DNA of 64,000 nt from Bacillota bacterium. Its GTDB lineage: Bacteria > Patescibacteriota > Patescibacteriia > Patescibacteriales > UBA12465. The notes beneath the pieces were generated by a model. The model saw nothing but the letters and a program-made list of their open reading frames with translations. It made no database searches and was not told the origin of the DNA. Shown one piece after another: positions 1 to 56,530 of this stretch. Location of the stretch: the NCBI GenBank assembly GCA_050259635.1, contig JBLNBA010000004.1:139005-203004 (forward strand), given 5' to 3'. How positions within the stretch are numbered: the stretch's first letter is position 1; each line of letters starts with the position of its first letter. Made by a program: the position numbers and the translations under genes.

Positions 1-300
1 AACGCTACTTTAAGCACATGTGCGACTGGTGCGGGAGTAGATGGCATCTTCGGTACAGCCGATGATGAAGAGGTTTGCTCTTTAGCAACCTTATCCGTTT
101 CTAGAACAGCTGGAAAAAGCAAGTTTACCGATGTCAGTAAACAACTGCTTTACGTTTTCGCCGACTTAGACGGTGACGGAACAGCTGAGAGATACCCTCT
201 CTTCTCTGATGCCCTTCAGGATTACTTCTGGAGTTATGACAACCAGGGATTGAAGGTGGTACAGCTTCGCTTCTATGAAGTGAGCTCCTCAGTAAATTAA
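1..300 (+). CDS. 3' end of an ORF truncated by the window edge (C-terminal 99 aa, hypothetical, possibly surface protein)
   Basis: Frame 1 is open from base 1 to TAA at 298-300 (NATLSTCATGAGVDG...DGDGTAERYPLF...QLRFYEVSSSVN). A strong intrinsic terminator follows. It is absent from the ORF track because no start lies in the window. Confidence 0.45.
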   Translation, partial: NATLSTCATGAGVDGIFGTADDEEVCSLATLSVSRTAGKSKFTDVSKQLLYVFADLDGDGTAERYPLFSDALQDYFWSYDNQGLKVVQLRFYEVSSSVN

Positions 301-348
301 AGCCTCGCACGAAGCCTTCGGGTTTCGTGCCGGATAACCATCTGGTGC

Positions 349-378
349 GGCGGATCTACGAATGATCCGCCTTTTTTT
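349..378 (+). terminator. Rho-independent terminator
   Basis: 8-bp stem GGCGGATC/GATCCGCC with a 7-nt loop, followed by T7 (372-378). Confidence 0.75.
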
Positions 379-423
379 ATACAAAAAAAAGCGTTTAGAC
401 ACCCTCTTTTTAAATATGTCTTC

Positions 424-1386
424 TTATTTAAGAATATAATTAAACAGATAGCCGGTAAACATGATGCCGACCCCGACGATACCGGCAAATATCAGGAGGA
501 GTCTCATTTTCATCACCCGTTTTAAGATGGTAAATTCAGGTAAAGATAAGGCGGTGACTGCCATCATAAATGACAGGGCCGTTCCCATCGCTACTCCTTT
601 CTCGGTTAAGACGCCGACCAATGGGGCCACACCGGCTGCATTGGCATATAAAGGTATACCTATTAAAGTGACCAAAGGAACGGCATACCAATTATCGGCA
701 TTCGCATAGGTAGATAGCACTTCAACCGGTATATAACCATGGATCCAGGCACCGATGGCAACCCCGATAATCACATACAGCCAAACTTTGTTAAGGATTT
801 TAACAGAATAATCCTTCGCATAAATCAACCGCTCGGCAGCCGTCAAGCGGTATCCCTCCAAAGCCTTATCGCCCCTCTCGCCTGAGTCGAAATCAAGAAC
901 CAGATGCTCAAGTTTGAGACGGTCGATGATGATGCCGGAAATAATGGCAATGAGGAGGCCTGATACCACGTAAAGGGAGGCTATTTTCCAACCAAACATG
1001 CCGATCAATAAGGCTAAGGCCACCTCATTGATCATCGGTGAAGAAATAAGGAATGAAAATGTCGTCCCTAATGGGACGCCGGCCTGTACAAACCCTAAAA
1101 ACATCGGAACGGCAGAACATGAGCAGAAGGGGGTGATAATGCCTAGGGCCGAAGCGAAAATATACCCCAAAAACTTATTCTTCCTGGATAAAAAAGCCCG
1201 CATCTTAGCTGGCGACCAATATGTCCTAATAAATGAAATGATAAAGACAACCAATAATAGCAGGATAAGTATTTTCAAGGAATCAAAAATGAAAAAAACA
1301 ATTGCGTCGCTAAGATGCGTTCCCTTCACCAGTCCGAAAACTGCATAAGCAAGCCATTCGGCCAGAATCTGTATTGGTTTAAACAT
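424..1386 (-). CDS. Predicted permease (UPF0718/ArsP-type multi-pass membrane protein)
   Basis: 320-aa polytopic ORF with the ITPFCSCSAVP cysteine motif typical of this permease family; ATG start at 1386. Confidence 0.7.
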   Translation of the reverse strand: MFKPIQILAEWLAYAVFGLVKGTHLSDAIVFFIFDSLKILILLLLVVFIISFIRTYWSPAKMRAFLSRKNKFLGYIFASALGIITPFCSCSAVPMFLGFVQAGVPLGTTFSFLISSPMINEVALALLIGMFGWKIASLYVVSGLLIAIISGIIIDRLKLEHLVLDFDSGERGDKALEGYRLTAAERLIYAKDYSVKILNKVWLYVIIGVAIGAWIHGYIPVEVLSTYANADNWYAVPLVTLIGIPLYANAAGVAPLVGVLTEKGVAMGTALSFMMAVTALSLPEFTILKRVMKMRLLLIFAGIVGVGIMFTGYLFNYILK

Positions 1387-1473
1387 AATATAATAGAGTA
1401 TATTTTCCTAACGATTTAATATTATCTTATTCGTCCAAATTGTTAAAGGTGCCCTGACCAGTTATCTTTGATA

Positions 1474-1505
1474 TAAAAAAACGAGCGAATATTCATCCGC
1501 TCGTA
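1474..1505 (-). terminator. Rho-independent terminator of the PAP2-like gene
   Basis: Stem ACGAGCG/CGCTCGT (1481-1487 / 1498-1504); the plus-strand A-run at 1475-1480 is a T-run on the minus strand. Confidence 0.65.
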
Positions 1506-1539
1506 TTGCAATCCCCTTGCAAAGACAATCTAATCAAAT

Positions 1540-2145
1540 TTATTTTACTGTTTGCTCAGCTGCCCGAGATAACGTAGAACTATGTAATCTATTTTTAATT
1601 AGAGAAAAATAGATCGTGGTCACCAATATCCCGCCCAAGGCATCGATTACATAATGTTGTTTAACAAATATCACGGATATCATGATAACTGTTCCCCAAA
1701 TTATGAAGAGGTATCTCATCTTATGAGAAATACCAAGCAACGGTGCGGATAATATGGTGAGGAAGATTAAGGAAACATGTAAACTCGGGAAGCAATTTTG
1801 TGGATTATCACAACTAAGTAGAAAGCTGTTTATTTTGCTAAGCGAATCAACGTTGTATTCCCTCGGAAATTCGACTGGATAAATTAGGAATATTAAGGCG
1901 TGAATAACCACTAAAATCGTTGCGAATTGGATAAATTCCTTTGCTCTACGTCTAATAAATAGACAGAAAACGGCAATGTAGAGCGCCCAAGAAACATATG
2001 GGATCATCCAATACTCATTCATTGCGATATTTCTTTCAAATTGGAATATCGGCAATTCATGAGCGGCAAGCAACTTTATGTTATTAGTCCCAAAATATAT
2101 AATTCCCCATAAAAGTCCGCATAGGACAATATGCTTGATTTTCAT
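1540..2145 (-). CDS. PAP2-superfamily membrane phosphatase-like protein
   Basis: 201-aa multi-TM ORF with PSLHVS and QHYVIDALGG motifs resembling PAP2 C2/C3 motifs. Confidence 0.55.
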   Translation of the reverse strand: MKIKHIVLCGLLWGIIYFGTNNIKLLAAHELPIFQFERNIAMNEYWMIPYVSWALYIAVFCLFIRRRAKEFIQFATILVVIHALIFLIYPVEFPREYNVDSLSKINSFLLSCDNPQNCFPSLHVSLIFLTILSAPLLGISHKMRYLFIIWGTVIMISVIFVKQHYVIDALGGILVTTIYFSLIKNRLHSSTLSRAAEQTVK

Positions 2146-2173
2146 CGTCTGATTGTTTTAAAGATCTGTGAAT

Positions 2174-2202
2174 ATCATAGCATAATATATGGTATTTGTC
2201 AA
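2174..2202 (-). promoter_or_regulatory. Sigma70-type promoter of the PAP2-like gene
   Basis: Minus strand reads TTGACA-N17-TATGAT, about 30 nt upstream of the ATG at 2145. Confidence 0.6.
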
Positions 2203-2313
2203 TGACATTAATTCTTTTACCAATAAATAACCAAATATTAGATAAATATGAAAGAATAACTGTAGTGCTTCAACCTATGACATTAATTCTTTCTTTAAAG
2301 AAAACCACCGATT

Positions 2314-2952
2314 CTATTCCGGTGGTTTTACGAAGTTGTTAAACAATTTAGGTCCATTTAACCTCAAGAAATTATGCACATGCCTGCTTCCATAATCGAG
2401 CATTTTTAATTTCCCTGCATCAAGGCAAAAGTTCCCTATTTCAGCAAAACTATGGGGATCGCAGAACGGTTGATTTACGTTTTCAGAATTATGACAGATA
2501 TATTTCCAAATATCTTTATAGCTCCAAAAAGAAATTTCTTGGCCTCGCTTTTGGATGTTAAACAAACCCAATAGAGAAAAATAGGTCGGCATTGTAAAGG
2601 GATTCATAGTTTTACGATAGAAACGATATTCATTCCAGTTGGCCATAATACCACTAAATAAAAAATACCTTAAATTGAAGAAGATTTCATACTTTTTATA
2701 AGGCAATACTTCTAAAGAGATGCCCTGGGATTTTGTCGACATAAGCTCTTCCTCCAATTTTAAAGACCTTGCTCTCCGTTCTCGTATATTTAGGTAATGC
2801 CTTCTCAATCCATTTTGTCTTATAGACTTATAATAGAATTTTCTTCTCTTATTTAATTCGATGAGGCTTCTTGCTACTCCAATTACCGGGAATTTGAAAA
2901 CTACCTTATCTAGAAGAAGAACTGTCCGGGTGCTCCCTTTTTTTATCTCCAT
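2314..2952 (-). CDS. Hypothetical protein (weak kinase-like C-terminal motif)
   Basis: 212-aa ORF in the AT-rich island. KMLDYGS resembles a DFG-type motif, but the catalytic-loop spacing is non-canonical. Confidence 0.5.
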   Translation of the reverse strand: MEIKKGSTRTVLLLDKVVFKFPVIGVARSLIELNKRRKFYYKSIRQNGLRRHYLNIRERRARSLKLEEELMSTKSQGISLEVLPYKKYEIFFNLRYFLFSGIMANWNEYRFYRKTMNPFTMPTYFSLLGLFNIQKRGQEISFWSYKDIWKYICHNSENVNQPFCDPHSFAEIGNFCLDAGKLKMLDYGSRHVHNFLRLNGPKLFNNFVKPPE

Positions 2953-2991
2953 TGTTTATTGATTTGAGGTTATTTTTAATGAACTATCAAC

Positions 2992-3024
2992 AAAAAATAG
3001 CACTGTATGTGCTATTTTGTCAAT
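2992..3024. repeat. Copy 1 of a 33-nt palindromic intergenic element (promoter/operator or terminator)
   Basis: aaaaaatagcacTGTATgtgctattttgtcaat. Minus strand reads TTGACAAAATAGCAC-N5-GTGCTATTTTTT. A near-identical copy lies at 3698-3730. Confidence 0.6.
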
Positions 3025-3093
3025 GGGATCGGACTTGATTTTGCAGTCTCTCACGGAGTATCTGAATTAGCTCGGGGACCGAGAACTCATATT

Positions 3094-3651
3094 TTAGCTC
3101 TTCAACCATATAGCAAATGGATCGACCAGGTCAGCCATCAGTACCGTCACTGTTTGTGCAGGAGTCTCTGGCACCGATTTATCAGCTCTTAGAGTCGCAA
3201 AAGATTTATTAATTCTGAATCTTAGATGTTCCAATAGCGGCTTTCCCTCATTTTTGCCGCTCACGACATCATATGCATTTAAAGGAAAGTCTTCAACAAC
3301 ACGCAGATTCTTCGCGACAAACGAAAATTCGGCACCTTGAAGTTGAACTGGTTTCTTAAATTCATAATAGTCAGAACCGTTTGCGGAATATTTATTTATG
3401 AAACCGATTGAAGACTCATACGTGCTTTTTGTTTCAAGCAAAACTAGTATAGGTGCAATCTTTACATTCTGGATACAATTTTCACAAAATATTTTCGTAG
3501 GCTTAGGTTGACAAAATACACCAGAATACCCCCAATAATGGACTCCATGCAACAATTCTTCATCTTGTTTCGACTTAACTATCTCGTTCAGCGACATATT
3601 ACTATGTGGACCAACTTTCATTATAATTATGTTTTGTGGTAATTTTGACAT
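3094..3651 (-). CDS. Hypothetical protein
   Basis: 185-aa ORF; no family recognised; flanked on both sides by the palindromic element. Confidence 0.5.
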   Translation of the reverse strand: MSKLPQNIIIMKVGPHSNMSLNEIVKSKQDEELLHGVHYWGYSGVFCQPKPTKIFCENCIQNVKIAPILVLLETKSTYESSIGFINKYSANGSDYYEFKKPVQLQGAEFSFVAKNLRVVEDFPLNAYDVVSGKNEGKPLLEHLRFRINKSFATLRADKSVPETPAQTVTVLMADLVDPFAIWLKS

Positions 3652-3697
3652 AGCTATAAATTATGACATTTTATTTTAAGCATTTATATTTATATAA

Positions 3698-3730
3698 CAA
3701 AAATAGCACTTAATGTGCTATTTTGTAAAT
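3698..3730. repeat. Copy 2 of the 33-nt palindromic intergenic element
   Basis: caaaaatagcacTTAATgtgctattttgtaaat. Same ATAGCAC-N5-GTGCTAT palindrome and flanks as 2992-3024. Confidence 0.6.
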
Positions 3731-3813
3731 TTGTTCCGAAGGTTGAGATATGCTTGGAACTGAGCCAACTAAAATCAAGTAAAAAAATAGAGGCAAATTA
3801 ATGTCTCTAGTTA

Positions 3814-4137
3814 TTATTCAATGCTTTCAAGAAAAATTTGTTTATCAAATCCTCCCCTTTCTTGTTTCCTCTTATCTTTTAGAGTAAATATCTCTTCCTT
3901 ATTAAGATCAAAGGCATTAATGGCAGAATCGATAACTTCCAATAAATCTCCAAGTTCTTTAATCAAGTCTTTCTTATCTTCTCTAGCCCCTAAGACCTCA
4001 TTGGATTCTTCGACCAATTTTTTAAGCAATTCGTATTTATATTCATCATTGCTCAAAATTCTTGTTTTAGGGATTTTATTCTCTTTTCGTATTATTTCAG
4101 GAATATTGTCCCTTACTAATTTTTTGTAAATTTCCAT
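3814..4137 (-). CDS. MazG-like nucleoside triphosphate pyrophosphohydrolase (small stand-alone type)
   Basis: 107 aa: YKKLVRDNIPEII...LVEESNEV...ELGDLLEVIDSAI...ERGGFDKQIFL, the pattern of the PRA-PH/MazG-like all-alpha NTP-PPase family. Confidence 0.7.
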   Translation of the reverse strand: MEIYKKLVRDNIPEIIRKENKIPKTRILSNDEYKYELLKKLVEESNEVLGAREDKKDLIKELGDLLEVIDSAINAFDLNKEEIFTLKDKRKQERGGFDKQIFLESIE

Positions 4138-4188
4138 GATTTATATTTTTTGAGTTGTTATTTTTCATTTACTAACACGAATAATCAA

Positions 4189-4217
4189 ATACTAATCTTT
4201 TATATTTCTAATGTCAA
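4189..4217 (-). promoter_or_regulatory. Sigma70-type promoter of the MazG-like gene
   Basis: Minus strand reads TTGACA-N17-TAGTAT. Confidence 0.6.
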
Positions 4218-4339
4218 TGCTTTTATAACAATAATGAACTAATTTTAGTCTATTTTTGCGTTCGCGACATTATCTAACAAATATTACAAATTGAATAAAA
4301 TGACAAAAACAATGCAAATATTTTGGAACTTCTTACCTA

Positions 4340-4364
4340 ACAAAAATAAGCCTTTCGGCTTATT
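4340..4364 (-). terminator. Rho-independent terminator after the 179-aa gene
   Basis: Minus strand reads ATAAGCC-GAAA-GGCTTAT followed by TTTTTG. Confidence 0.65.
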
Positions 4365-4436
4365 CTTTAATTATGCTCTTTTGGTGGACTGCTTTGGAAC
4401 TCGAATGGCTAATTATGGAAAAAATGCAGATACTAA

Positions 4437-4976
4437 TTAAGCATCCAACTTTATGATTCCATTATGTTTTTCACTAACAATAAAACCAAAATATTTAGGC
4501 AATAATTTCAACTTCTCTACTGGATTTTTTTTAGAATATGAAAAGAAAATTTTTGAAGCAAAGCTCTTTTTTAACAAATCATCAGAAAATTGACACTTAT
4601 CTAAATCTCCTGAAAAAATTACTAGTGTTAAATCTTTAACGGCTTCAAATATTTTTTTACTATACCGGTCGATATTTTTAATTAACACTATTCTTTGCGA
4701 TAGATCAGGAATATTTTTAATTGTCTCAATAAAATCTACTTCTTTTTCGGAATCAATTATTAGAGCGTTGCCCAACTCATTACCAATCTGACTCTTAAAT
4801 TCCTCTTTAGCCGCTGGATGGGCGGAAAATAGAATTACTTTATGTCCATTTTTCAACAGATTGGCTAATAAACAAACTGTAAAAAAAGATGAACCAGTCT
4901 TCTCTGCCCCGGAAATTAGAATAGGTAAATCATTTAATGAAAAATCAACTTTTTCATCATTAATTAAAATATTCAT
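4437..4976 (-). CDS. Hypothetical protein with degenerate P-loop-like motif
   Basis: 179 aa. ISGAEKTGSSFF resembles a Walker A motif lacking the Lys; RIVLIKNID is Walker-B-like. Its start overlaps the GNAT stop by 4 nt (ATGA). Confidence 0.5.
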   Translation of the reverse strand: MNILINDEKVDFSLNDLPILISGAEKTGSSFFTVCLLANLLKNGHKVILFSAHPAAKEEFKSQIGNELGNALIIDSEKEVDFIETIKNIPDLSQRIVLIKNIDRYSKKIFEAVKDLTLVIFSGDLDKCQFSDDLLKKSFASKIFFSYSKKNPVEKLKLLPKYFGFIVSEKHNGIIKLDA

Positions 4977-5446
4977 AAAATTACTAATTTTTTATAAAAT
5001 ACCTTCATATTATTTGCCAGTTTATGTATCTGCTCGTAGCCCATTTTTTTATAAAAACAATAAGCCGTGTCTTTGTATTTCTCAGCACTTCTAATAAATA
5101 GTTCAGTGTAACCTTGGTTTCTCGCCTCCTGTTCTAAATAATTTACCATCTGCCTGCCGATGCCTTTACCGCGATGAATATTATTAATATAGAGTATTTT
5201 TATCTCTCCAGGGTTACTCGTTTTAGCCAGTGGTAAAATTATTGGTAATGGCTTAGCTAAGCCACCGATTCCAGTTACTAATTTCCGATCTTTAACAACA
5301 AAAAAATTCATTGAATGTTCAGTGTTTCCATTAATTTCTGATTCTATTCTGGATAAATATTTTTCAATCTCTTCTGGCTCAGTCCATTGCTCTAAAATAT
5401 AACGAATCATCTTTAAATCTTCATTTCTTGGTTTTTCTATTAGCAT
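4973..5446 (-). CDS. GNAT family N-acetyltransferase
   Basis: 157 aa; acetyl-CoA motif A RGKGIGRQMVNYLEQEARNQGY. Confidence 0.75.
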   Translation of the reverse strand: MLIEKPRNEDLKMIRYILEQWTEPEEIEKYLSRIESEINGNTEHSMNFFVVKDRKLVTGIGGLAKPLPIILPLAKTSNPGEIKILYINNIHRGKGIGRQMVNYLEQEARNQGYTELFIRSAEKYKDTAYCFYKKMGYEQIHKLANNMKVFYKKLVIL

Positions 5447-5481
5447 AATTATATTATAAGCTAAAATTTGTAATTTAAAAA

Positions 5482-5500
5482 CAGCGACGGGGATTCGAAC
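5482..5500 (-). other. Remnant of a tRNA 3' end (T-loop, 3' T-stem and 3' acceptor strand)
   Basis: Minus strand reads GTTCGAATCCCCGTCGCTG with no 5' partner. It differs from the 3' end of the intact tRNA-Gln 130 nt away. Confidence 0.4.
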
Positions 5501-5591
5501 TTTTTTAAGTCAATAAAATTATGTGTTTGCTAAAATCTAAAAAAATAGCCTTATTTTTGAACTACTTTGGAACCTTAAATAATGTTTAATG

Positions 5592-5624
5592 TTAAAACAA
5601 AAACAGGCCTTATAAGCCTGTTTC
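5592..5624 (-). terminator. Rho-independent terminator downstream of tRNA-Gln
   Basis: Stem ACAGGC/GCCTGT (5603-5608 / 5615-5620) followed on the minus strand by TTTTGTTTT. Confidence 0.6.
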
Positions 5625-5633
5625 CGTGTTTTG

Positions 5634-5704
5634 CTCGGGGACAGGGATTCGAACCCCGATAAACAGGACCAGAACCTGTTGTCCTACCGTTAGACGATCC
5701 CCGA
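5634..5704 (-). tRNA. tRNA-Gln (anticodon CUG)
   Basis: Hand-folded cloverleaf: acceptor TCGGGGA/TCCCCGA, anticodon stem ACAGG/CCTGT with loop TTCTGGT, T-arm CGGGG-TTCGAAT-CCCTG. 71 nt; CCA not encoded. Confidence 0.85.
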
Positions 5705-5743
5705 ATTTGGCTAGCTTAGGCTAGCCTTTTTGAATTCTTTTGT

Positions 5744-5771
5744 ATTATAACAATTAAGAGTTTTTTTTCAA
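5744..5771 (-). promoter_or_regulatory. Candidate promoter of tRNA-Gln, overlapping the lysS stop
   Basis: Minus strand reads TTGAAA-N16-TATAAT, about 40 nt upstream of the tRNA 5' end. Confidence 0.45.
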
Positions 5772-7271
5772 GTCGGTTTCCTTTTCTTCCAACATTACGT
5801 CTTTCTTGGGCTTCATAAGGGGGAAAAGCGTGGTTTCCCTAATAGGTTTATCCATCATGAAGGCAAATAGGCGTTCACCGAAACCGAATCCGCAGGTCGG
5901 AGGCATACCGTGCTCGAGCATTTCCACGAATTCCCAATCCGGCATCATTGCCTCCTTGTCTCCCCGATCTATGAGTTGCTGTTGGAGCTCAAAGCGCTGC
6001 CGTTGGTCTACCGGGTCGTTTAGCTCAGAGAAGCCGTTCCCTACTTCACTGCCGGCGATAATAACCTGGAAACGTTCAGTAAGTTCTGGATTGCCCGGTT
6101 TGGCTTTGGCTAAGGGTGACACTAACTTGGGGTGATTGATCAGAAATACCGGTCCGGCAATCGTCTTCCGGCAATATTTCCAGAGAGTATCAGTCAGGCG
6201 TTCTCTGTTATCTCCTTCATATTTGACACCTAGTTCATCCAATTTATTCTTCATGTCACCATCGCTGGCTGAGAGGACATCAATCCCGGTTTGTTTCAAA
6301 ACCTCTTCCCGATAGTCTATCCTCGGCCACTCGCCAGCCAGGTCGTAGCTCATTCCCTTGGTTGTAAAGCTAGTCTTGCCGAACACCCTCTGCGCTATTT
6401 CCTGATATAGCTCCTGGACCATCTTCATTCCCTTTTCGTAGTCCGAATAAGCCCAATAAAATTCCATGTTGGTAAACTCCTGTAAATGATCCGGGCTAGA
6501 TCCTTCATTGCGATAAACTCGGCCTATCTCAAATACCTTCTCAAAACCGGCGGCCATGAGACGCTTCTGCCACAGCTCCCCAACGGAGATGCGAAGATAT
6601 ACATCAAGGTCGAAATCATCATGATGGGTCTTAAAGGGATTAGCCTCGGCCCCGCCGGTAGTAGTTTCTATAGTCGGCGTCTCTACCTCGAAAAAACCCT
6701 TTCCTTTCAAAAATTCCCTGGTTACTTCCCAAAACATCGCCTTCTTCACAAACATCTCACGGATCTCAGGATTTAAAAGGATATCCAAATAACGGCGGCG
6801 ATAACGCTCATCCTCATCTTTTAACCCGTACCAGGCATCAGGAATCGGAGCGATCGCCTTAGTAAGGACTTTCCAACCAGAAACCATCAGGCTCTTCTCT
6901 CCTTTATGTGTCAAAAAAACAGCACCGGTGGCTTCGATAAAATCACCGCTATCGATCAATTTAATGAATTGCTTATAGCTCTCGTCACCAAGCTCTTTTT
7001 TGGAAAAAGCCAGCTGCAATCCGCCACTTGCGTCTTCCAGGTTAGCAAAGGTGAGATTACCATGGCTGCGAATTCCTCTTAATCTGCCAGCAACGGTAAC
7101 TTTAGCTTGGCTGGCAGCCAAGTCATCGAAAACAGCCTGCACTTCGGCAAGAGAATGATCGCGTCCGCAAGCAGCAGGGTAAGGGTTTATGCCACCCTCA
7201 ATCAGGGCGGCCAGCTTTTTCAAACGCTCCTCTTTTTCGCTTCCCGGCGCTTGCTGGTTCATTTCCGACAT
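5754..7271 (-). CDS. lysS: Lysine--tRNA ligase, class II
   Basis: 505 aa with an N-terminal OB anticodon-binding region and class II core (FFEVETPTIE..., RISVGELWQKRLMAAGFEKVFEIGRVYRNEG, GFGFGERL). Confidence 0.95.
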   Translation of the reverse strand: MSEMNQQAPGSEKEERLKKLAALIEGGINPYPAACGRDHSLAEVQAVFDDLAASQAKVTVAGRLRGIRSHGNLTFANLEDASGGLQLAFSKKELGDESYKQFIKLIDSGDFIEATGAVFLTHKGEKSLMVSGWKVLTKAIAPIPDAWYGLKDEDERYRRRYLDILLNPEIREMFVKKAMFWEVTREFLKGKGFFEVETPTIETTTGGAEANPFKTHHDDFDLDVYLRISVGELWQKRLMAAGFEKVFEIGRVYRNEGSSPDHLQEFTNMEFYWAYSDYEKGMKMVQELYQEIAQRVFGKTSFTTKGMSYDLAGEWPRIDYREEVLKQTGIDVLSASDGDMKNKLDELGVKYEGDNRERLTDTLWKYCRKTIAGPVFLINHPKLVSPLAKAKPGNPELTERFQVIIAGSEVGNGFSELNDPVDQRQRFELQQQLIDRGDKEAMMPDWEFVEMLEHGMPPTCGFGFGERLFAFMMDKPIRETTLFPLMKPKKDVMLEEKETDLKKNS

Positions 7272-7277
7272 ATGTTT

Positions 7278-7739
7278 TCAGTCAATCTTAACGATCTTAT
7301 ACTCGACAATTCCCCTGGGGGTTTCAACATTTACCGTCGTTCCTTTCTTTTTCCCTAAAAAGGCCACACCGAGTGGCGATTCGTTCGAAATCATGCCTGA
7401 CATCGGATCGGCCTCATTAAAACTGACAATCGTATATTTCCTTTCTTTGCCGTCCGCTTTCACGGTCACGGAAGAACCCATGGTTACCTCATCTTTCCCA
7501 TTGCTGCTCTTTTCTACGACCGTCACATTCTTGAGGATATTAGTTAGCTCAAGGATGCGGCCTTCGTTTAAGGCCTGCGCATCTTTGGCTTCGCTGTATT
7601 CGGCGTTCTCGCTAAGGTCGCCCAGCTCTTTAGCACGCTCGATCCTTTCTGCGATTTCCCGGCGTCGGGCGGTACTAAGAAGATTCAGCTCATCCTGGAG
7701 CTTGTCGTAACCTTCTTGGGTGATAATTTGTTCGGACAT
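7278..7739 (-). CDS. greA: Transcription elongation factor GreA
   Basis: 153 aa; ITQEGYDKLQDELNLL...RREIAERIERAKELGDLSENAEY coiled coil plus a C-terminal FKBP-like domain. Ends 6 nt upstream of lysS. Confidence 0.9.
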   Translation of the reverse strand: MSEQIITQEGYDKLQDELNLLSTARRREIAERIERAKELGDLSENAEYSEAKDAQALNEGRILELTNILKNVTVVEKSSNGKDEVTMGSSVTVKADGKERKYTIVSFNEADPMSGMISNESPLGVAFLGKKKGTTVNVETPRGIVEYKIVKID

Positions 7740-7802
7740 ATTTAAGATGTTTTTTTAAAGCGTCCGGAGGGAAAACCTGCTCGGACGCGGAGAATAGTTT
7801 GT

Positions 7803-7831
7803 ATTATAATGGCTTCCTAGGGAAAAAACAA
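7803..7831 (-). promoter_or_regulatory. Candidate greA-lysS promoter
   Basis: Minus strand reads TTGTTT-N17-TATAAT, overlapping the stop of the upstream gene. The leader contains the hairpin GCGTCCG...CGGACGC. Confidence 0.4.
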
Positions 7832-9261
7832 GTGCTTAGGACGAGAAAGCCCAAGCCTAGAGGATGGTTCAGATATGGGGTAAAAACATTGACAATACCT
7901 AGGAAAATGATGCTAGCGGCGACCACCTGGCGGATATGTCGGTCTTCGCCTTTCTTCAGCCAGCCGGCTATGATCAGGATTAACCAGGTAAGATAGGCTC
8001 CTAGGCCCAGTAATCCGATCTTGAGCCAGATATCAAGATAGGCCCACTCAAACGCATAAGTGGTGTAGCGGCCATCAGGATGCAGTGCCAGCACCCGCGG
8101 ATCTTGAGAATTATAGGTTATAGTCTTCCCAAAACCCTGCCCGATCAAAGGTGACCTTGAAATAGAATCTCTTAATTCCGGTAGCTGAGACCAACGTGAA
8201 GATACGGCCGCGTCGTTACCGGATAGTTCCAAACGCTGGGCCAAGGCTTCCGCCGAAAGCCCGGTAGCGGGATTTGGATAAGGAAACTTTATGGTGAGAT
8301 ACATCAGCATGGCGGCTCCAAGCAATGAGGCCAGGACGTAACCCAAAGCCTTTAAATAATCCCTTGTCCTTCCTTGGAATGAATATATGGCCAGCAAGAC
8401 ACCCGTAACCCCAAGGGCCAGCCAAAAGCTCCTAGACATGCTCACAATAATTACCGTCATCAACAAGGAAAGGGCAAGTAAAGATATATTTCTTTTCGTC
8501 TTGTTATTAAGGAGAGACCACAAGATGAATAAATATGCGATCGGCGCATAAATTTGCGACTGGATAAAAATCCTCTGCCAACCCCCGCCCATGGCCGTTA
8601 CCTCCCCGATCCCGCTTCGTCTCAACCAAAGGTAAATATCAGGCATGATGGCCAGGTTATGGGAAAAGACGAAGAGAAGGAAAAAGGTTTCAAAGCACAA
8701 CCAAGCCACCGCGATCAAGAAATAGGAAAACAAGCGCCTGGCCTTTTCCTTGGAGCCGTCATAGACCAGCAGGGCGGGAATGAACAGGCTGAGATAAATC
8801 CACGCGTTGGCGTCGGCGAGAACCAGGCCGAGGTCATGGTTTCGTAATATACCTTGGAGGACCCCGATAAATAACATCACGACAAAAACGGCAAATACTT
8901 TCTTATAAGGCATCCTGGAGCTGATATCCAGATATGACGCCTTAATGCCGCGACGCCAGACGTAAATCGCTGTTGCTAGCATTATCCCCGCCCAAAGGGC
9001 GAAACGCAAAGAAAAAGGAAACCCCAGGATCTCATAAGAGAACAAGTGTCCCTTTGATCCGATAACTAACTCCATGGCCGCTGCGATAAGGCCATATTCC
9101 AGCGAGCGGAGGGATAATAAAAAAGCCGCAAAGAAAGCGGCGACCGGAAGATAGGGCTGCCAGGCGGGCAAAAAATAGGCGGCAAAAGACAGGAGTTCGA
9201 CCAGAATGATCAGGCTCACGCAGAAAAGATAGGGGAATCTTGGTTGAAAAGATATTTTCAT
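7804..9261 (-). CDS. O-antigen ligase-like (Wzy_C) polytopic membrane protein
   Basis: About 12 TM segments with a loop typical of the O-antigen ligase family (SMSRSFWLALG). Start placed at ATG 9261 (MKISFQ), 2 nt after the upstream stop; the track ORF extends to 9297. Confidence 0.6.
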   Translation of the reverse strand: MKISFQPRFPYLFCVSLIILVELLSFAAYFLPAWQPYLPVAAFFAAFLLSLRSLEYGLIAAAMELVIGSKGHLFSYEILGFPFSLRFALWAGIMLATAIYVWRRGIKASYLDISSRMPYKKVFAVFVVMLFIGVLQGILRNHDLGLVLADANAWIYLSLFIPALLVYDGSKEKARRLFSYFLIAVAWLCFETFFLLFVFSHNLAIMPDIYLWLRRSGIGEVTAMGGGWQRIFIQSQIYAPIAYLFILWSLLNNKTKRNISLLALSLLMTVIIVSMSRSFWLALGVTGVLLAIYSFQGRTRDYLKALGYVLASLLGAAMLMYLTIKFPYPNPATGLSAEALAQRLELSGNDAAVSSRWSQLPELRDSISRSPLIGQGFGKTITYNSQDPRVLALHPDGRYTTYAFEWAYLDIWLKIGLLGLGAYLTWLILIIAGWLKKGEDRHIRQVVAASIIFLGIVNVFTPYLNHPLGLGFLVLSTCFFPRKPL

Positions 9262-24800: not shown

Positions 24801-25503
24801 TACGGTCCGTATCGTCGATCTTCTTCTTGTTCTGTAAGCACAGCAGAATATCCTGGGCCTCCGCGTCTTCCGGTTTGAAATAATGGACATCATTAGTAGC
24901 CACCAAGGGGATGCCTAATTCCTCTGAAAAAGCGATTAACTGGCGGTTAACCTTGTCCTGTCCCTCCAGTTCCGGGTGATCCTGGACCTCAAGATAATAG
25001 TTTTCACGGCCAAACAGCTGATCAAATTCGATTACCCTTTTCTTGGCCTTTTCCAGCTCGCCCGCCAATATGAGATGAGGGATTTCTCCGCCCAAACAAG
25101 CGCTGCAGGCGATAAGGCCTTCATGATGCTGCTGTAATAGTTCCCAATCTATTCGGGGCTTGTAATAAAAGCCCTCCAGATGAGCGGCCGATACCAGCTT
25201 GATCAGATTATCATAGCCGGTCTTATTCTTAGCCAACAACAAAAGATGGAAGCTCTTGCCATCCGCCCTGGTATGCTTATCGAAACGAGAATTCGGCGCT
25301 ACATAGGCCTCATAGCCGATAATCGGCTTGACCCCCGCTTTTCGGCATTTCTGGTAGAACTCAATGGCGCCATAAAGCACGCCATGATCGGTCAGAGCTA
25401 CGGCATTAGATCCTTCTTCCTTCGCTCTTGAGATAAGCTCATCAATCTTCGTCAGACCGTCTAAAAGCGAATAGTGGCTATGGTTGTGGAGATGCACGAA
25501 CAT
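21814..25503 (-). CDS. dnaE: DNA polymerase III alpha subunit
   Basis: PHP domain starts at MFVHLHNHSHYSLLDG; PDIDMDF, GLLKMDFLGL and FNRSHAACYAL motifs. Start placed at ATG 25503 (track ORF runs to a GTG at 25644). About 130-aa C-terminal extension. Confidence 0.93.
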   Translation of the reverse strand: MFVHLHNHSHYSLLDGLTKIDELISRAKEEGSNAVALTDHGVLYGAIEFYQKCRKAGVKPIIGYEAYVAPNSRFDKHTRADGKSFHLLLLAKNKTGYDNLIKLVSAAHLEGFYYKPRIDWELLQQHHEGLIACSACLGGEIPHLILAGELEKAKKRVIEFDQLFGRENYYLEVQDHPELEGQDKVNRQLIAFSEELGIPLVATNDVHYFKPEDAEAQDILLCLQNKKKIDDTDRMRMIGHGDYSMRPAAEMERVFAHIPEAIHNTVKIAEMCDVSIPLGEIQLPYFNVPDGYDGETYLRHLCEKGLEKKYGIIKADGHYILGPEGKIPAALSLEKIIERMEYELGIVFKMGWPSYFLIVSDFVNWAKNNKVVVGPGRGSAAGSLVCYLAGITNLDPLLYDLLFERFLNPDRISMPDIDMDFADIRRGDVLSYVEQKYGQDHVAQIITFGTMAAKAAVRDVGRVLGAPYEYCDRISKSIPMFTTLSEAIAEVPEVKDIYNNEPEGKRILDYAKRLEGVARHTSTHACGVLITPKPLTEYVPIQYASSSDKTVISQYSLHPVEDLGLLKMDFLGLKNLTIIESALRIIKKTRGLEIDIDNLPLEDEASYRLFQQGETTGVFQFESSGMKRYLRELKPSEFEDIIAMVALYRPGPMEWIPDYISGKHKQKVVSYLHPKLEPILSKTYGVAIYQEQVMQISRALAGFTPGEADVLRKAMGKKIASLLAEQKEKFIDGCVKNGVYKELAEKVFSFIEPFAGYGFNRSHAACYALIAYQTAYLKSHWPTEFMAALLTSDQHDSDRVAIEIDECRSMGLKVMPPDINESFDSFTVVTAGTKSNQTAAAGEKVDTIRFGLNAIKNVGEHIVEVLIEERKSGGPFADVYDLLERVTDKDLNKKSLESLIKSGAMDSFGGRGILLANVERFLSFNKEISKQAESRQASLFASAPELDRLNRPQLLDAPEPTKIERLTWEKELLGLYISDNPLSTISSDLAGYALPLSQLGAHRGDDRIIAAGVITSLKKIVTRKGETMLFAKIEDKSANVEVLVFPSLLKNNADIWKDGGLVIVSGKLSDKDSDVKLLADIAAGLDPEDARTSIDAFKKTILAEKENGRWRGNKSNWRSKLPAGSVPAKPALPVTPPPIEVPPVITAAEAEPALRIAFRNAPLADQEKVLKEILGSSKGKNAVYLRVPIDGKDLVIRTAYAVENNSDLRQRLRLSLKDAAQVVEPLEEE

Positions 25504-25530
25504 GGGAAAACTGCTTATTTTTATGTCTAA

Positions 25531-25559
25531 ATCATACCAACTTTGCCCTGCTAATTCAA
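25531..25559 (-). promoter_or_regulatory. Candidate dnaE promoter
   Basis: Minus strand reads TTGAAT-N17-TATGAT, 28 nt upstream of ATG 25503; supports the shorter start. Confidence 0.5.
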
Positions 25560-25640
25560 TCTTGCCAAAAGGGAGCGATTCTGCCGGGATAAAGAAAAAA
25601 GACAATCCGTAGATTGCCTTTATGGGGTCATTTTTTTGCT

Positions 25641-26516
25641 TCACAAGCTTTGAAGGACATTTTTCAAGTCGGCTCCTAGTCTAAACGTATATATTCCAAA
25701 AGCCAATACTAACATGAGGATGTGCCAAGTAAAACCGTAACAGAGAAAAGGCAAAAGGAAGATAAGCCCCACCATAATAAGTAGGAAGAGCACTTCATGG
25801 TTGTCAGATAATAGGAGTGAAATAAACAGACCACTGAAACAGCATACGAAGAAGACTATAAAGGGTGCGATAAACATCCCAAATACGCTGCCATACCCCT
25901 GATATACGGGTACATCCAATAATACTAAACCCAGGATCAAGGGCAAATATCTCAATAATTTTTGAGGCTTGATCATGATGATAAAAATGGAAGACACCAG
26001 TATTCCTACCGGAAACCAAGGTATCGAGGTATTTTGCGCGGGTAAATGTTGAAGGAATCCATTTCCATATTGGACGCGGTCTGTCTCATAATTTAAAGAC
26101 CCGAAAAGTTTCCAAGCAGGGCGATTAACATGTATTATCGTAAAATTCTCAATTTTACCGGGTTCAAGATAGAACCAGTAATCGGATAAGTGCTTGGTAA
26201 ACATTGTCTGTTCTTCATCCGTAATGGTGTCGATGACAAAATATAAATTTGTTGAAGGTATTCGTATGTCTTTAACGAATTGCTCATCAACTACCAGGGC
26301 CGTGGAATTGATATTGGCAATGACTTTGCCATTGATACGGCTAATTAGCAGGCTGTCATCAATGAGTACATTCTTGCTGGTCGTTTGCAGTAATACATAG
26401 TGTTTTCCCTCAATCCTTTGGATCCTCATTTCGTTTCCTAAACTTTCCTGGCCGATTGAACACAAGGCCAATAATCCCATGGACATCAATATGGCCAATA
26501 ATGCTGCTTTTTTCAT
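25641..26516 (-). CDS. Hypothetical membrane protein (signal peptide plus C-terminal multi-TM region)
   Basis: 291 aa; MKKAALLAILMSMGLLALCS signal, about 170-aa ectodomain, 4-5 C-terminal TM segments; AT-richer than its neighbours. Confidence 0.6.
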   Translation of the reverse strand: MKKAALLAILMSMGLLALCSIGQESLGNEMRIQRIEGKHYVLLQTTSKNVLIDDSLLISRINGKVIANINSTALVVDEQFVKDIRIPSTNLYFVIDTITDEEQTMFTKHLSDYWFYLEPGKIENFTIIHVNRPAWKLFGSLNYETDRVQYGNGFLQHLPAQNTSIPWFPVGILVSSIFIIMIKPQKLLRYLPLILGLVLLDVPVYQGYGSVFGMFIAPFIVFFVCCFSGLFISLLLSDNHEVLFLLIMVGLIFLLPFLCYGFTWHILMLVLAFGIYTFRLGADLKNVLQSL

Positions 26517-28415: not shown

Positions 28416-28499
28416 GCCGCGGTGGCGGAACTGGTAGACGCGCACGACTCAAACTCGTGTGGGGGAGACTCCGTGAGGGTTCGATTCCCTCTCGCGGCA
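28416..28499 (+). tRNA. tRNA-Leu (anticodon CAA)
   Basis: Hand-folded: acceptor GCCGCGG/TCGCGGC, anticodon stem CACGA/TCGTG with loop CTCAAAC, long variable arm, T-arm GAGGG-TTCGATT-CCCTC. 84 nt. Confidence 0.88.
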
Positions 28500-28611
28500 C
28501 ATAAAAGATCCATTTAGGGTCTTTTTTTTGTTTCCTTAAATCATTTGACAATCTTTGGATTTAATGATAATTTACTTTAAAATCATTTTGTAGCACATAA
28601 ACAACTAAACC

Positions 28612-29133
28612 ATGGAAATAGAAGAATTTTGGAAACTGTATGATCTCTATGTGGAGACTGGCAATTACCAATTTTTGTCAGATTTATCAAAAGGACTGGC
28701 CGAGCTCGAACAAAAAGACAGGCAAAATCAACTTACTCGTCCAGATAAAAGTTGGAACAAGATTCTTGCCTGGCAGGTAACAAGAAACCAAGTGTTTCAC
28801 CATCCAAACAATCACACTTTCCAACTTCGAGAACACGAGATTATAATGTGGCACCGTCATTGGGACAGGGATATGTATATTTCTCGCATCCCCTCTCTGG
28901 AATTAGTTTCCGGAGCATATCTCAACCCTGGCAATAAAATGGATCTTGAAGATAAGGATGATTATTCCGTAAATGAATGGGACAATATTATCAAGTATCG
29001 CACGTTTACCGACGAGAGAGGGTTATACCTCCCCCTCTACCAAAAGAGAGACGTTCTCTTCCTTCTTAAAAAATTCATGGAGGAATGTAGAGACGAGGCC
29101 ATCGCCAAAGCAACTGAAAGCTTTGGACAGTAA
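28612..29133 (+). CDS. Hypothetical protein
   Basis: 173-aa ORF in the AT-rich patch after tRNA-Leu; candidate promoter TTGACA-N17-TAATTT at 28545-28573. Confidence 0.5.
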   Translation: MEIEEFWKLYDLYVETGNYQFLSDLSKGLAELEQKDRQNQLTRPDKSWNKILAWQVTRNQVFHHPNNHTFQLREHEIIMWHRHWDRDMYISRIPSLELVSGAYLNPGNKMDLEDKDDYSVNEWDNIIKYRTFTDERGLYLPLYQKRDVLFLLKKFMEECRDEAIAKATESFGQ

Positions 29134-29234
29134 CACCAGCAAGACTCTGAATAAGGGTCTTTTTAATTTTACGAGAAGATCTTCTTTATTGAACATTATG
29201 ACCTGATAATAATAACATCAACTCAGTTCATTAA

Positions 29235-29636
29235 ATTATAAACCGCCAAAATCATTTCACCTGTCTTGGTATTCATACTGACCCTATTTGGCATCAAAGA
29301 GCCAAGCAATTATATCCCTCAAGTGATTACCGACTTAAAGAAGACTATTACCCCGACCACAATCACCGAGCCTCTGCCATCTTTGTAATCAATCCCGTAA
29401 ACTGTTCCTATGAAGAAATTTTAAAAAGTATTGAGATGATTCTCGAGCCCGGCGGATACCTATTTATGCATATTAATAGTCTTCCTGATATTGAAAAAAC
29501 TATTAAAAGCTGCATAGAAGAAGAATATGACATTATTGAGGAACTAAAATTTGCACGTTTGCGTTACCACCCACTAATGTATTTTCATTCCATCTACGAG
29601 GTATATTTGTCAGAAAAATTTAATCTAAAACAATAA
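29235..29636 (+). pseudogene. 5'-truncated paralog of the 30138-30689 methyltransferase-fold gene
   Basis: Open frame from the stop at 29232-29234. CLGIHTDPIWHQRAKQLYPSSDYRL...ILEPGGYLFMH...LRYHP...IYEV aligns with residues ~65-184 of the downstream gene. The N-terminal third and any ATG before 29436 are missing. Confidence 0.55.
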
Positions 29637-29665
29637 AGAGCGACCAAAGGACCGCTCTTTTTTTA
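29637..29665 (+). terminator. Rho-independent terminator
   Basis: Stem AGAGCG/CGCTCT followed by T7. Confidence 0.65.
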
Positions 29666-29804
29666 ATATAATCGCGGTTTATAAAACAAAATAGCTAATT
29701 TTAGTAAAAAATTAAGTGTCACTTTCTTCTTCTATTATTTCACCTGCAATTTCGCTGTTCTATATTTCGCAAAAATAGGAAGCCCGGTCGCATTAAAGAA
29801 AAAA

Positions 29805-30020
29805 ATGCAAAGGCTTTCAAATGACGTGTCCAGCAATCTGCAAATCTTGAAAGATAGGCGCGAAGATATCCTAAAATTCTCGGAAGATATAAAACATGAA
29901 CCGGACAAGAAAATGATGGAAAAGCGTTTGGCAAAAATTGAAAATGACATCAGTTCTTACGAAATCAAGGCTTCCATTCTCAGCCATCTCCCCAAAGAGG
30001 ATTTCAGAGGCCAATGCTAA
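29805..30020 (+). CDS. Small hypothetical coiled-coil protein (uncertain)
   Basis: 71-aa K/E-rich ORF. Competing antisense ORFs exist; a weak hairpin CCCTG...CAGGG plus a T-run follows it. Confidence 0.3.
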   Translation: MQRLSNDVSSNLQILKDRREDILKFSEDIKHEPDKKMMEKRLAKIENDISSYEIKASILSHLPKEDFRGQC

Positions 30021-49478: not shown

Positions 49479-49520
49479 GTTTATCTGATATTTGATGGTT
49501 TTGTTAAAGATCAACCGATT

Positions 49521-49549
49521 ATAGTATAATGATACAGCATTTCTGTCAA
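49521..49549 (-). promoter_or_regulatory. Sigma70-type promoter
   Basis: Minus strand reads TTGACA-N17-TACTAT. Confidence 0.6.
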
Positions 49550-49581
49550 GAGTGGAACTTTCCTTCCCTCTAAGAATATTA

Positions 49582-49617
49582 TATCAGAATATAACAAAAG
49601 ACCCCCTGTGAAGGGGG
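49582..49617. repeat. Direct repeat copy A (36 nt, contains a terminator hairpin)
   Basis: tatcagaatataacaaaagaccccctgtgaaggggg is identical to 51011-51046. Weaker similarity extends about 20 nt further upstream. Confidence 0.9.
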
Positions 49618-49625
49618 CCTAAAGT

Positions 49626-50054
49626 TTAGGATTGCTTGTTCAAAGTAATATCGATTGGCGTTTCTGCCACCAAGATATACTCCTTCTTCTCTTTATACTT
49701 CACTTTTACCAAATATTTCCCTTCGTCTGTAAATCCAAAGCCATTTATCTTTGACGTAGCCCGGAGCCTCCGGCGATCCTTGGGCATTACACACTCCTGT
49801 TCAAATGAATTCAACACTTTCCCCTCCGGATCATAGATTTCTACCAGGAGCTGAAAATGCCTCTCCTTATTGGCTTTTTCATCAAACCACAAGGTGACCA
49901 CATGGAATGATATCGGCAACATCTTGATTACCTTCCGATCAAGCTCCTCTCGATAGTTGATATTAATCTCATCCAAGGTCTCAAGCAGGCTTAGAGAGTT
50001 CGTTTCCCCGTCGATTATTGAATTTTTACAAACTACCGACCAAACATTTTTCAT
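49626..50054 (-). CDS. Hypothetical protein, third gene of the TA-like cassette
   Basis: 142 aa, beta-rich pattern (VKVKYKEKKEYILV); starts 17 nt after the antitoxin stop; no family recognised. Confidence 0.55.
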   Translation of the reverse strand: MKNVWSVVCKNSIIDGETNSLSLLETLDEININYREELDRKVIKMLPISFHVVTLWFDEKANKERHFQLLVEIYDPEGKVLNSFEQECVMPKDRRRLRATSKINGFGFTDEGKYLVKVKYKEKKEYILVAETPIDITLNKQS

Positions 50055-50071
50055 AGATATAATAAATACGA

Positions 50072-50467: not shown

Positions 50468-50471
50468 ATAA

Positions 50472-50909: not shown

Positions 50910-50940
50910 GGGCGTTTTAAGTTTAATGAATCATGAATAT

Positions 50941-50968
50941 ATTATACCTTATCGGGTATAGATGTCAA
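50941..50968 (-). promoter_or_regulatory. Strong sigma70-type promoter of the TA-like cassette
   Basis: Minus strand reads TTGACA-N16-TATAAT, 32 nt upstream of ATG 50909. Confidence 0.7.
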
Positions 50969-51010
50969 GGGTAATGAGCAAATATATCCACCCTACCCTT
51001 AAGACAAATG

Positions 51011-56496: not shown

Positions 56497-56524
56497 TTGA
56501 CCACATATCCTTGAATGATATAAT
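56497..56524 (+). promoter_or_regulatory. Orphan near-consensus promoter
   Basis: TTGACC-N16-TATAAT with no ORF downstream. Confidence 0.5.
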
Positions 56525-56530
56525 TATATA

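Follow-up and report, generated by a model that had tools for sequence, protein, structure and literature searches.

How a block of AT-rich genes came to lie beside a tRNA gene, and whether its members belong together, is the question raised by positions 1390–5505 of the DNA analysed here, a 64-kb stretch (hereafter the window) of contig JBLNBA010000004.1. The window belongs to the Patescibacteria (candidate phyla radiation, CPR), whose genomes are tiny, whose members are mostly uncultured and whose acquisition of accessory genes is poorly understood. The original prediction, made from the sequence alone, saw in the block an island of orphan enzymes integrated at tRNA-Gln. Our analysis supports a horizontally acquired, compositionally foreign island at this tRNA, without an integrase, and adds the array character that had been missed: the block is probably one instance of a lineage-wide, integron-like array of exchanged cassettes, anchored on tRNA-Gln, in Falkowbacteria-like Patescibacteria. 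The evidence comprises the ~100-nt junction units found between the genes, their position and single orientation, a spacing of one open reading frame (ORF) per unit, the sharing of cassettes between arrays and the absence of the block from relatives.

Composition of the block and its absence from relatives

The sharp drop in G+C that had been noticed between ~1390 and 5505 is borne out by calculation, with a GC content of 0.322 compared with 0.468 in the remaining window, and no block of lower GC exists in the 64 kb. Within the same 64 kb, the tetranucleotide distance also peaks in this interval (0.49 versus ~0.15). The GC at third codon positions (GC3) is 0.21–0.38 in the six genes of the block versus 0.50–0.56 in those of ArsP, LysS, GreA and Wzy, and past ArsP the GC content is again host-like. 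All six minus-strand ORFs that had been predicted are present at their coordinates, and the ATGA overlap between the acetyltransferase gene and the 179-aa ORF is found in the sequence. The tRNA at the right edge is an intact tRNA-Gln, and the island begins <200 nt downstream of it, on the tRNA strand. Starting from the tRNA, the order is tRNA-Gln, GNAT-p179, MazG, p185, p212, PAP2 and ArsP:

5754–7271: lysS, adjoining tRNA-Gln, then greA and a Wzy-type gene (upstream in the direction of transcription)
5633–5704, minus strand: tRNA-Gln(ctg), intact, the anchor at the head of the array (ARAGORN; Rfam tRNA, 57.4 bits, full length)
4973–5446, minus strand: GNAT acetyltransferase, 157 aa (Pfam Acetyltransf_1, 1.9e-11), first gene of a two-gene cassette
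4437–4976, minus strand: p179, RecA/KaiC-like protein with a deviant Walker A motif, 179 aa, coupled to GNAT by the ATGA overlap
3814–4137, minus strand: candidate MazG/PRA-PH-like all-alpha NTP pyrophosphohydrolase, 107 aa (MazG107; borderline in Pfam), single-gene cassette
3094–3651, minus strand: p185, 185 aa, of a widespread uncharacterised family, single-gene cassette
2314–2952, minus strand: p212, putative minimal protein-kinase-like protein, 212 aa, of a Patescibacteria family, single-gene cassette
1540–2145, minus strand: PAP2-family membrane phosphatase, 201 aa (Pfam PAP2_3, 1.8e-11; PAP2, 3.2e-07), the last AT-rich cassette
424–1386, minus strand: ArsP-type permease (Pfam ArsP_1, 2.9e-76), of host-like GC, bounding the variable region on its distal side

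The relatives used for comparison were 80 loci containing lysS (L002–L081), of which 43 have at least 4 kb of sequence downstream of this gene. Relatives with LysS at 65–83% identity are Patescibacteria, mostly labelled Falkowbacteria or Parcubacteria. Locus L001 belongs to the same organism (100% identity) and adds only 4.2 kb to the left of the window, so that it gives no independent synteny. The order Wzy-GreA-LysS is kept in ~70 of the 80 relatives, and most of them have tRNA-Gln after lysS. The block is not conserved: five of its six genes, those of PAP2, p185, MazG107, p179 and GNAT, were found in none of the 80 within 10 kb downstream of lysS, and a distant p212-like gene was found within this distance only in L039. 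In L011, a complete Falkowbacteria chromosome, tRNA-Gln is followed by one unit and then directly by ArsP, and the two are separated by 4.3 kb in the window, 7.3 kb in L050 and 9.5 kb in L023. As ArsP lies directly after tRNA-Gln or kilobases away from it, depending on the genome, the two bracket a variable region.

Contigs end at most 1 kb downstream of lysS in 24 of the 80 relatives and at most 1 kb upstream in 3 of 80 (p=5e-5), as expected of a locus that is rich in repeats or variable between strains. L034, a contig of a metagenome-assembled genome (MAG) that stops just after tRNA-Gln, is identical at 99.9% to the metagenome contig L128 (L034 3701–11594 corresponds to L128 1–7894), and L128 runs on into an array of 6 units. 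Binned genomes of this lineage seem to lose arrays systematically at assembly breaks. If the array reading is true, it would explain the frequent breaks of MAG contigs after lysS-tRNA-Gln, together with the loss of a variable gene pool.

The gap between lysS and tRNA-Gln is itself bimodal among L002–L081 (~18–100 nt or ~400–510 nt), and in L087 it carries, at 2775–3464, an ORF annotated as LAGLIDADG-like, which suggests that some lineages carry a small insertion upstream of the tRNA.

The junction unit and its distribution

The junction unit is ~100 nt long and consists of a mimic of the 3' end of tRNA-Gln, from the T-loop to the acceptor, a terminator-type hairpin and an extended -10 promoter-like motif. 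Along the unit, the terminator of the upstream gene is followed by TTACAAAAAAG, the tRNA 3' mimic, TTGACA, the hairpin with its T-run and TGnTATAA; the extended -10-like motif, TTTTTGTTnTATAA, stands after the terminator hairpin in each unit. Judged from these motifs, the units are predicted to act both as terminators and as promoters. In L018, L027, L039 and L087, the hairpin stands directly after the true 3' end of tRNA-Gln (...ATCCCTGTCCCCGAGCA-AATTGACA-hairpin-TTTTTGTTATATAA), and at other gene boundaries degenerate copies of the tRNA 3' end precede it (CAGTTCCAAGCATATCTCAACCTTCGGAACA in the window and AAAAGTTCCAATCTTATCCCAGTCCCCGAGTA elsewhere). A scan of positions 1–9000 against Rfam returned only the tRNA, and the junction unit has no Rfam family. 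Most genes of the block had been credited with a promoter and a hairpin terminator of their own. Terminator-like hairpins are indeed more frequent than in shuffled sequences (7 versus 2.4), whereas promoter-like hexamers are no more frequent than in shuffles (21 versus 20.4).

Within the window, the following units and relics were located, reading away from the tRNA:

5601–5623, minus strand: terminator-type hairpin AAACAGGCTTATAAGGCCTGTTT directly after the tRNA; several relatives carry a AAATAGCAC-type unit hairpin here
5560–5575, minus strand: decayed T-loop-like repeat GGTTCCAAAGTAGTTC, a direct repeat with 4386–4402; the pair flanks the GNAT-p179 module
5489–5518, minus strand: weak unit match with the tRNA 3' remnant AAAAAAGTTCGAATCCCC... 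(nhmmer, E=0.47 in 10 kb), conserved upstream of the GNAT gene of L087
4339–4414, minus strand: decayed unit GAGTTCCAAAGCAGTCC...GAGCA, hairpin AATAAGCCGAAAGGCTTATT, then TTTTTGTT (nhmmer, model positions 15–92, E=0.45 in 10 kb)
3684–3779, minus strand: strong unit with mimic AGTTCCAAGCATATCTCAACCTTCGGAACA, TTTACA, hairpin AAATAGCAC-ATTAA-GTGCTATTT and TTTTTGTTATATAA (nhmmer, E=1e-16 in all sources, 9e-19 locally)
2977–3084, minus strand: unit upstream of p212, with the remnant GTTCTCGGTCCCCGAGCTAA at 3065–3084 and TTGACA, hairpin and T-run at 2977–3033
2177–2203, minus strand: region before PAP2 with a weak resemblance to the promoter and hairpin of a unit, ATTGACAAATACCATATATTATGCTAT (nhmmer, E=0.61 in 10 kb)

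The 64 kb contain only two strong units, at 3779–3684 and 3033–2977, which are located within the island and have the orientation of the tRNA. For the second, the E-value is 7e-08 in all sources and 4.7e-10 locally (0.87 for its remnant at 3065–3084), and a repeat in this unit, D15, matches the tRNA 3' end. The decayed unit at 4339–4414 aligns to a strong unit of L087 (8559–8653), and each remaining spacer of the island gives a weak nhmmer match on the correct strand when the 10 kb downstream of lysS are searched. Taken together, these weak matches place a unit or its probable relic before each predicted transcription unit.

The tRNA 3'-end remnant that the original prediction had recognized upstream of the GNAT gene is real (GTTCGAATCCCCGTCGCTG, ~5484–5518). 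The accompanying statement that there was no flanking direct repeat is wrong, as junction units and decayed copies of the tRNA-Gln 3' end lie between the genes. These repeats do not form one pair; they are several degenerate copies (5560–5575, 5489–5518, 4339–4414, 3684–3779 and 2977–3084). Moreover, a 25-nt palindrome is present at 2994–3018 and 3700–3724, is found nowhere else in the window (0 expected) and recurs in other loci. The p212-PAP2 spacer contains an exact 16-nt direct repeat, ATGACATTAATTCTTT (D19), with copies at 2202–2217 and 2277–2292, 75 nt apart; this pair brackets a T-loop-like segment, GGTTGAAGC.

In 1.79 Mb of sequence from 88 sources, an nhmmer model built from 20 units not adjacent to a tRNA found 178 units. 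At E<0.01, 66 units were detected in the loci examined first, all of them on the strand of lysS and the tRNA. For the loci anchored on lysS, no unit was present in 670 kb upstream of the gene compared with 43 in 446 kb downstream (p=7e-18), and these 43 were all on the lysS strand (p=2e-13). A scan of metagenomes with one hairpin type added 58 loci, in which there are 115 units. All units of a given source have the same orientation, and this holds in all 58 metagenome loci. The metagenome arrays reach 7 units, as in L115, which starts from tRNA-Gln, and in L083 11 units follow tRNA-Gln(ttg), with a single ORF behind each. The median spacing of units is 772 nt, usually with one ORF per interval. 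In ~60 of 82 intervals, no more than ~90 nt separate the end of the first ORF from the unit that follows.

What is conserved in the hairpin is its structure, with compensatory changes, and not its sequence. A stem of at least 8 bp is present in 90% of 79 unique units versus 10% of shuffled sequences, and more than 25 different stem sequences occur among the units (for example ATAGCAC, ATACCAC, ACATACC, ATATAGC and CACCTGT). In the loci examined, the junction unit offers a simple sequence handle for the recovery of accessory genes from metagenomes.

Some further observations concern the surroundings of units and arrays. A unit also stands directly after tRNA-Arg(tcg) in L098 (869–981) and L139 (842–954), so that tRNA-Gln may not be the only tRNA with this element. 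Insertion sequences (IS) lie inside arrays at L082 4295–5215, L087 11020–11952 and L036 2839–3846 (one of the IS110 family, one with an rve-domain transposase and a likely IS30-like one). Elements of the IS110/IS1111 group target the attC sites of integrons. In the window itself, a second AT-rich patch (28501–30000, GC 0.34–0.39) directly follows tRNA-Leu(caa) at 28416–28500 and contains a 173-aa ORF (28612–29133); a search of this patch revealed neither repeats of the tRNA-Leu 3' end nor junction units. More patches of low GC (0.34–0.40 against a background of 0.47) are found at 25501–26500, 49501–51000, 56501–57500 and 58501–60000, and the tetranucleotide distance also peaks at 50–56 kb.

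Cassettes common to different arrays and their cargo

Three cassettes of the window recur in other arrays at 82–88% identity. The p185 cassette, unit and ORF together, is 84% identical in nucleotides and 88% in amino acids to that of L082, an AT-rich array with an IS110 element, and the p212 gene that stands beside p185 in L082 is only 68% and 56% identical, respectively. A homologue of MazG107 in L143 (85% identical in amino acids) has units on both sides. The GNAT-p179 module is 82–87% identical in nucleotides among the window, L087 and L128 (GNAT, 81–82% in amino acids in L087 and L128), and the lysS and greA genes of these loci are 67–73% identical. Its GC content is 0.28–0.30 in all three, where that of lysS is 0.48, 0.38 and 0.35, respectively. 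Further cassettes are common to arrays at 85–91% nucleotide identity and occupy different positions in them.

The edges of the GNAT-p179 module are sharply defined. It is the first cassette after tRNA-Gln in the window and in L128, and in L087 it is separated from the tRNA by four genes (a 166-aa ORF, an EEP-family gene, a 168-aa ORF and a Fic gene). The homology between the window and L087 starts at GTTCAAAAA, just after the GGTTCCAAAGTAGTTC repeat, and stops at ...GAGCA, immediately before the hairpin, past which the two sequences diverge completely. In the window, the module lies between the copies of a direct repeat (15/17 matches), and in L087 a single remnant subtype is present on both sides of it.

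Could the block then be native DNA, that is, vertically inherited AT-rich genes of low expression, with the units as the usual tRNA terminator and promoter of the lineage? In favour of this, the genomic GC content is low in many relatives (0.28–0.40), p179 is conserved across Patescibacteria and GNAT-p179 follows tRNA-Gln in two genomes. However, the core of the host has 47–48% GC and a GC3 of 0.52–0.56 compared with 0.21–0.38 in the block, the block is missing at the site in 80 of 80 relatives, and the identity of the module exceeds that of core genes by ~15 points. Units are also missing from the 670 kb that precede lysS and from the remaining 60 kb of the window. A native origin is largely refuted by these data, and we regard it as highly improbable.

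The cargo of the arrays is extremely diverse. The 141 ORFs of the cassettes represent 118 families, and Pfam recognises 57 families among 104 representatives. They include methyltransferases, NUDIX and HD proteins, inositol monophosphatase, peptide deformylase, pentapeptide repeats, a holin and TfoX_N.

The block had been described as an island of orphan enzymes, but its 212-, 185- and 179-aa proteins all belong to conserved families. The p212 family is found only in Patescibacteria (~211 aa, 45 clusters) and has no Pfam model; H167 and N174 are among its invariant residues, and K20 and D186-Y-G are nearly so. Its AlphaFold2 (AF2) model is confident (predicted local distance difference test, pLDDT, 95.5), and the top Foldseek matches are all protein-kinase-like (PKL) folds, namely Rio2 (E=0.03, prob 0.91), PRPK/Bud32, Ark1, LegK4 and APH, with E-values no better than 0.03 and template modelling (TM) scores of only 0.3–0.37. 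No Pfam kinase domain was matched, and a comparison with the sequences in PDB (single sequence and profile) gave only a weak match, to the kinase TTK. The kinase-like character ascribed to this protein from its DYG motif is therefore weakly consistent with the fold matches to Rio2, Bud32 and Ark1. A p212 homologue (42% identity) lies between guaB, encoding IMPDH, and guaA in a complete operon for de novo purine synthesis (L084 8001–8645; also in L085 and L086), which hints at a role in nucleotide metabolism.

The p185 family is represented by 173 clusters, including proteins of Bacilli and Clostridia (Firmicutes) at 55–60% identity, so that the description of p185 as an orphan is refuted. A Pfam domain was found in none of 101 family members, and the AF2 model (pLDDT 94.5) had no fold match in PDB or BFVD, nor did the protein match the sequences in PDB. 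Homologues of p185 are also encoded at L149 6001–6573 and L151 6001–6543. In Pseudobacteroides cellulosolvens, the p185 gene is located between a DEAD/ResIII helicase gene and genes for a HAD hydrolase and PRTase-CE, in a segment flanked by inverted PRAI/RDD duplicates, and in a MAG of the Bacilli it follows a Bro-N gene. The p179 family comprises 75 clusters of Patescibacteria at 52–85% identity, and in distant relatives p179 is encoded alone, without GNAT, at other genomic sites. Its Walker A motif is deviant (GAEKTGSS) and its profile matches the RecA-like domain of Dda in PDB weakly (E=0.009), in agreement with the degenerate P-loop that had been proposed. Neither p185 nor p179 obtained a useful match in PADLOC, PHROGs or NCBIfam. 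The MazG-like assignment of the 107-aa protein is borderline: the PRA-PH threshold is passed (22.0 bits, cut-off 21.3), the MazG threshold is missed (21.7 bits, cut-off 22), and a PHROG of MazG-like proteins is matched at 0.0018.

These proteins had led the original prediction to a link with stress or defence, and in its strongest form the six genes would be a coherent, nucleotide-centred module in which the MazG-like protein, p185, p212, GNAT and the ATPase-like protein act together. In its favour, p185 and p212 are adjacent in two genomes, a p212 homologue belongs to the purine operon, p185 has helicase, HAD hydrolase and PRTase-CE genes as neighbours in P. cellulosolvens, and a gene of the dCTP-deaminase family comes after GNAT-p179 in L087. 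However, PADLOC gave no credible match for the six proteins, only hits at chance level (Cas12a, 0.0019 over 84 aa; mad8, 0.0025; Csx3, 0.045). The genes are, moreover, predicted to form separate transcription units split by junction units, and they recur without one another: MazG is found alone in L143, GNAT-p179 in L087, L128 and L102, p179 in L088 and L089, and p212 in L083 and L084. As the cargo of such arrays is generally miscellaneous, a concerted module appears very unlikely.

Proposed mechanism and comparison with known systems

In the array reading, a cassette would consist of one gene (here, in one case, two) preceded by a junction unit of ~100 nt that is derived from, or mimics, the 3' end of tRNA-Gln. 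Because each is preceded by a terminator hairpin and an extended -10 promoter, as predicted from their motifs, the cassettes would be insulated transcription units reading in the direction of the tRNA. Cassettes would be gained, lost and swapped through recombination at the junction units, and two routes can be envisaged. In the first, the tRNA-mimic/hairpin site would be the target of a site-specific recombinase encoded elsewhere; arguments for this are the left edge, which resembles a T-loop, the direct repeats and the strict orientation. In the second, the conserved ~100-nt units would allow RecA-dependent exchange following DNA uptake, a route favoured by what appear to be insertions or replacements at internal junctions and by the homogenised hairpins within a genome. 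The AT-richness of the block would stem from a shared pool of low-GC cassettes that have not drifted towards the 47% GC of the host. More tentatively, the arrays may represent an undescribed gene-capture system analogous to integrons, in which tRNA-Gln is the fixed insertion site, the unit serves as recombination site, terminator and promoter, and a recombinase encoded elsewhere or on a transient element moves single-gene cassettes between species.

The absence of an integrase, already remarked upon in the original prediction, is supported by Pfam, by motif and by a hidden Markov model (HMM) of Xer-type recombinases, in searches that did not specifically target serine recombinases or divergent integrases. 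Pfam found no integrase domain in the six proteins, and no integrase was among the top 25 Pfam families listed for 104 surveyed cassette proteins. The annotated arrays L082, L083 and L087 contain no recombinase or replication gene, and every anchored array has lysS-greA-wzy upstream, with no adjacent intI. The matches of the Xer HMM and motif were confined to housekeeping Xer genes of distant relatives without tRNA-Gln at the site. In L056, L058, L060, L061, L063, L075, L077 and L080, a conserved Xer-type tyrosine recombinase is encoded 2.5–8 kb downstream of lysS, and there is no tRNA-Gln beside lysS.

The same observations allow the idea of one or more decayed genomic islands to be weighed, according to which integrase-bearing elements, phage-like or tycheposon-like, entered the 3' end of tRNA-Gln and later lost the integrase and most of their genes. 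The location at a tRNA, the foreign composition, the partial tRNA copies and the IS elements inside some arrays all fit such a history, for which Prochlorococcus provides a precedent, successive integrations leaving partial tRNAs and remnants behind (bioRxiv 10.1101/2020.12.28.424599). However, the annotated arrays hold no integrase, replication, capsid or other element gene, or fragment of one, and, housekeeping Xer genes aside, the Xer-HMM scan was negative in all sources. Random decay of elements of 5–40 kb would also hardly produce a periodicity of ~0.8 kb with one ORF, or a conserved promoter and terminator at the junctions. Neither the hairpin motif nor the p212 family was found in viral contigs, which therefore give no support to a phage origin. 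Island decay is thus an unlikely source of the block.

Several points weigh against an array of exchanged cassettes. The Xer-type HMM and motif, whose sensitivity for divergent integrases is limited and which were not aimed at serine recombinases, detected no tyrosine recombinase in the island, elsewhere in the 64 kb or at any array locus. No excised circle and no base-precise pair of empty and occupied sites was seen, and an all-against-all megablast, intended to reveal nearly identical strains with a difference of one cassette, yielded no clean empty/occupied pair. Only two spacers of the window have strong units, the others being individually insignificant (E 0.4–0.9), and the fetching of metagenome loci by one hairpin type biases the sample of units. 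RNAalifold found no consensus pairs in a MAFFT alignment of 45 units, as the stem registers shift between hairpin types, so that the claim of covariation rests on the stems of the individual sequences. Finally, some of the block could predate the remainder, given that GNAT-p179 comes first after tRNA-Gln in two genomes, and the high conservation of this module could partly reflect constraint.

If the array reading is true, gene flow in these episymbionts would have a concrete route, namely the storage and swapping of single, self-expressed genes in a compact array at one tRNA gene. A full-text search of the literature returned no description of cassette arrays or integrons of this kind in Patescibacteria/CPR, and comparisons have to be made with systems from other bacteria. 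In E. coli, tandem repeats lie directly downstream of tRNA operons such as tyrT and, as here, include the 3' end of the neighbouring tRNA gene. These repeats are short and near-identical, lack a varied cargo of ORFs and are not known to be exchanged between species, unlike the arrays described here. Classical tRNA islands and prophage remnants share with them the insertion on the 3' side of a tRNA, the deviant composition, direct repeats of the tRNA 3' end and a patchy distribution. The arrays differ from these in the absence of integrase and mobility genes, in having many repeats instead of one attL/attR pair, and in their single-gene periodicity.

Another parallel is offered by the tycheposons of Prochlorococcus, whose islands lie at tRNA genes, where partial tRNAs separate successive integrations and remnants accumulate (bioRxiv 10.1101/2020.12.28.424599). 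Both cases combine a streamlined genome, variable islands at tRNA genes and partial tRNA copies between insertions, and in both older material is pushed inward and decays, with a cargo that is niche-related or of unknown function. However, tycheposons measure several kilobases, encode a tyrosine or serine recombinase and often carry replication genes, whereas the units of exchange in our arrays are ~0.4–1.8 kb long, usually hold one gene and include no recombinase or replication gene that we could see. The junction is, in addition, a conserved composite of tRNA mimic, terminator and promoter.

With integrons, the arrays have in common tandem, co-oriented and mostly single-ORF cassettes, an extremely diverse cargo largely of unknown function, a repeated hairpin-bearing element between cassettes and the occurrence of identical cassettes in more than one array and position. 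They differ in four respects. There is no intI beside the array or anywhere in the sequence examined by Xer HMM and motif. The anchor is a tRNA gene and not attI. The junction is a hairpin of 8–12 bp with a tRNA 3' mimic, in which, by eye, neither the R''/L''-L'/R' architecture of attC nor a GTTRRRY core is apparent. Lastly, the cassettes carry their own predicted promoter and terminator rather than relying on Pc. If the proposal is true, the integron idea of cassettes joined to a recombination site would be extended to a tRNA anchor with built-in promoters.

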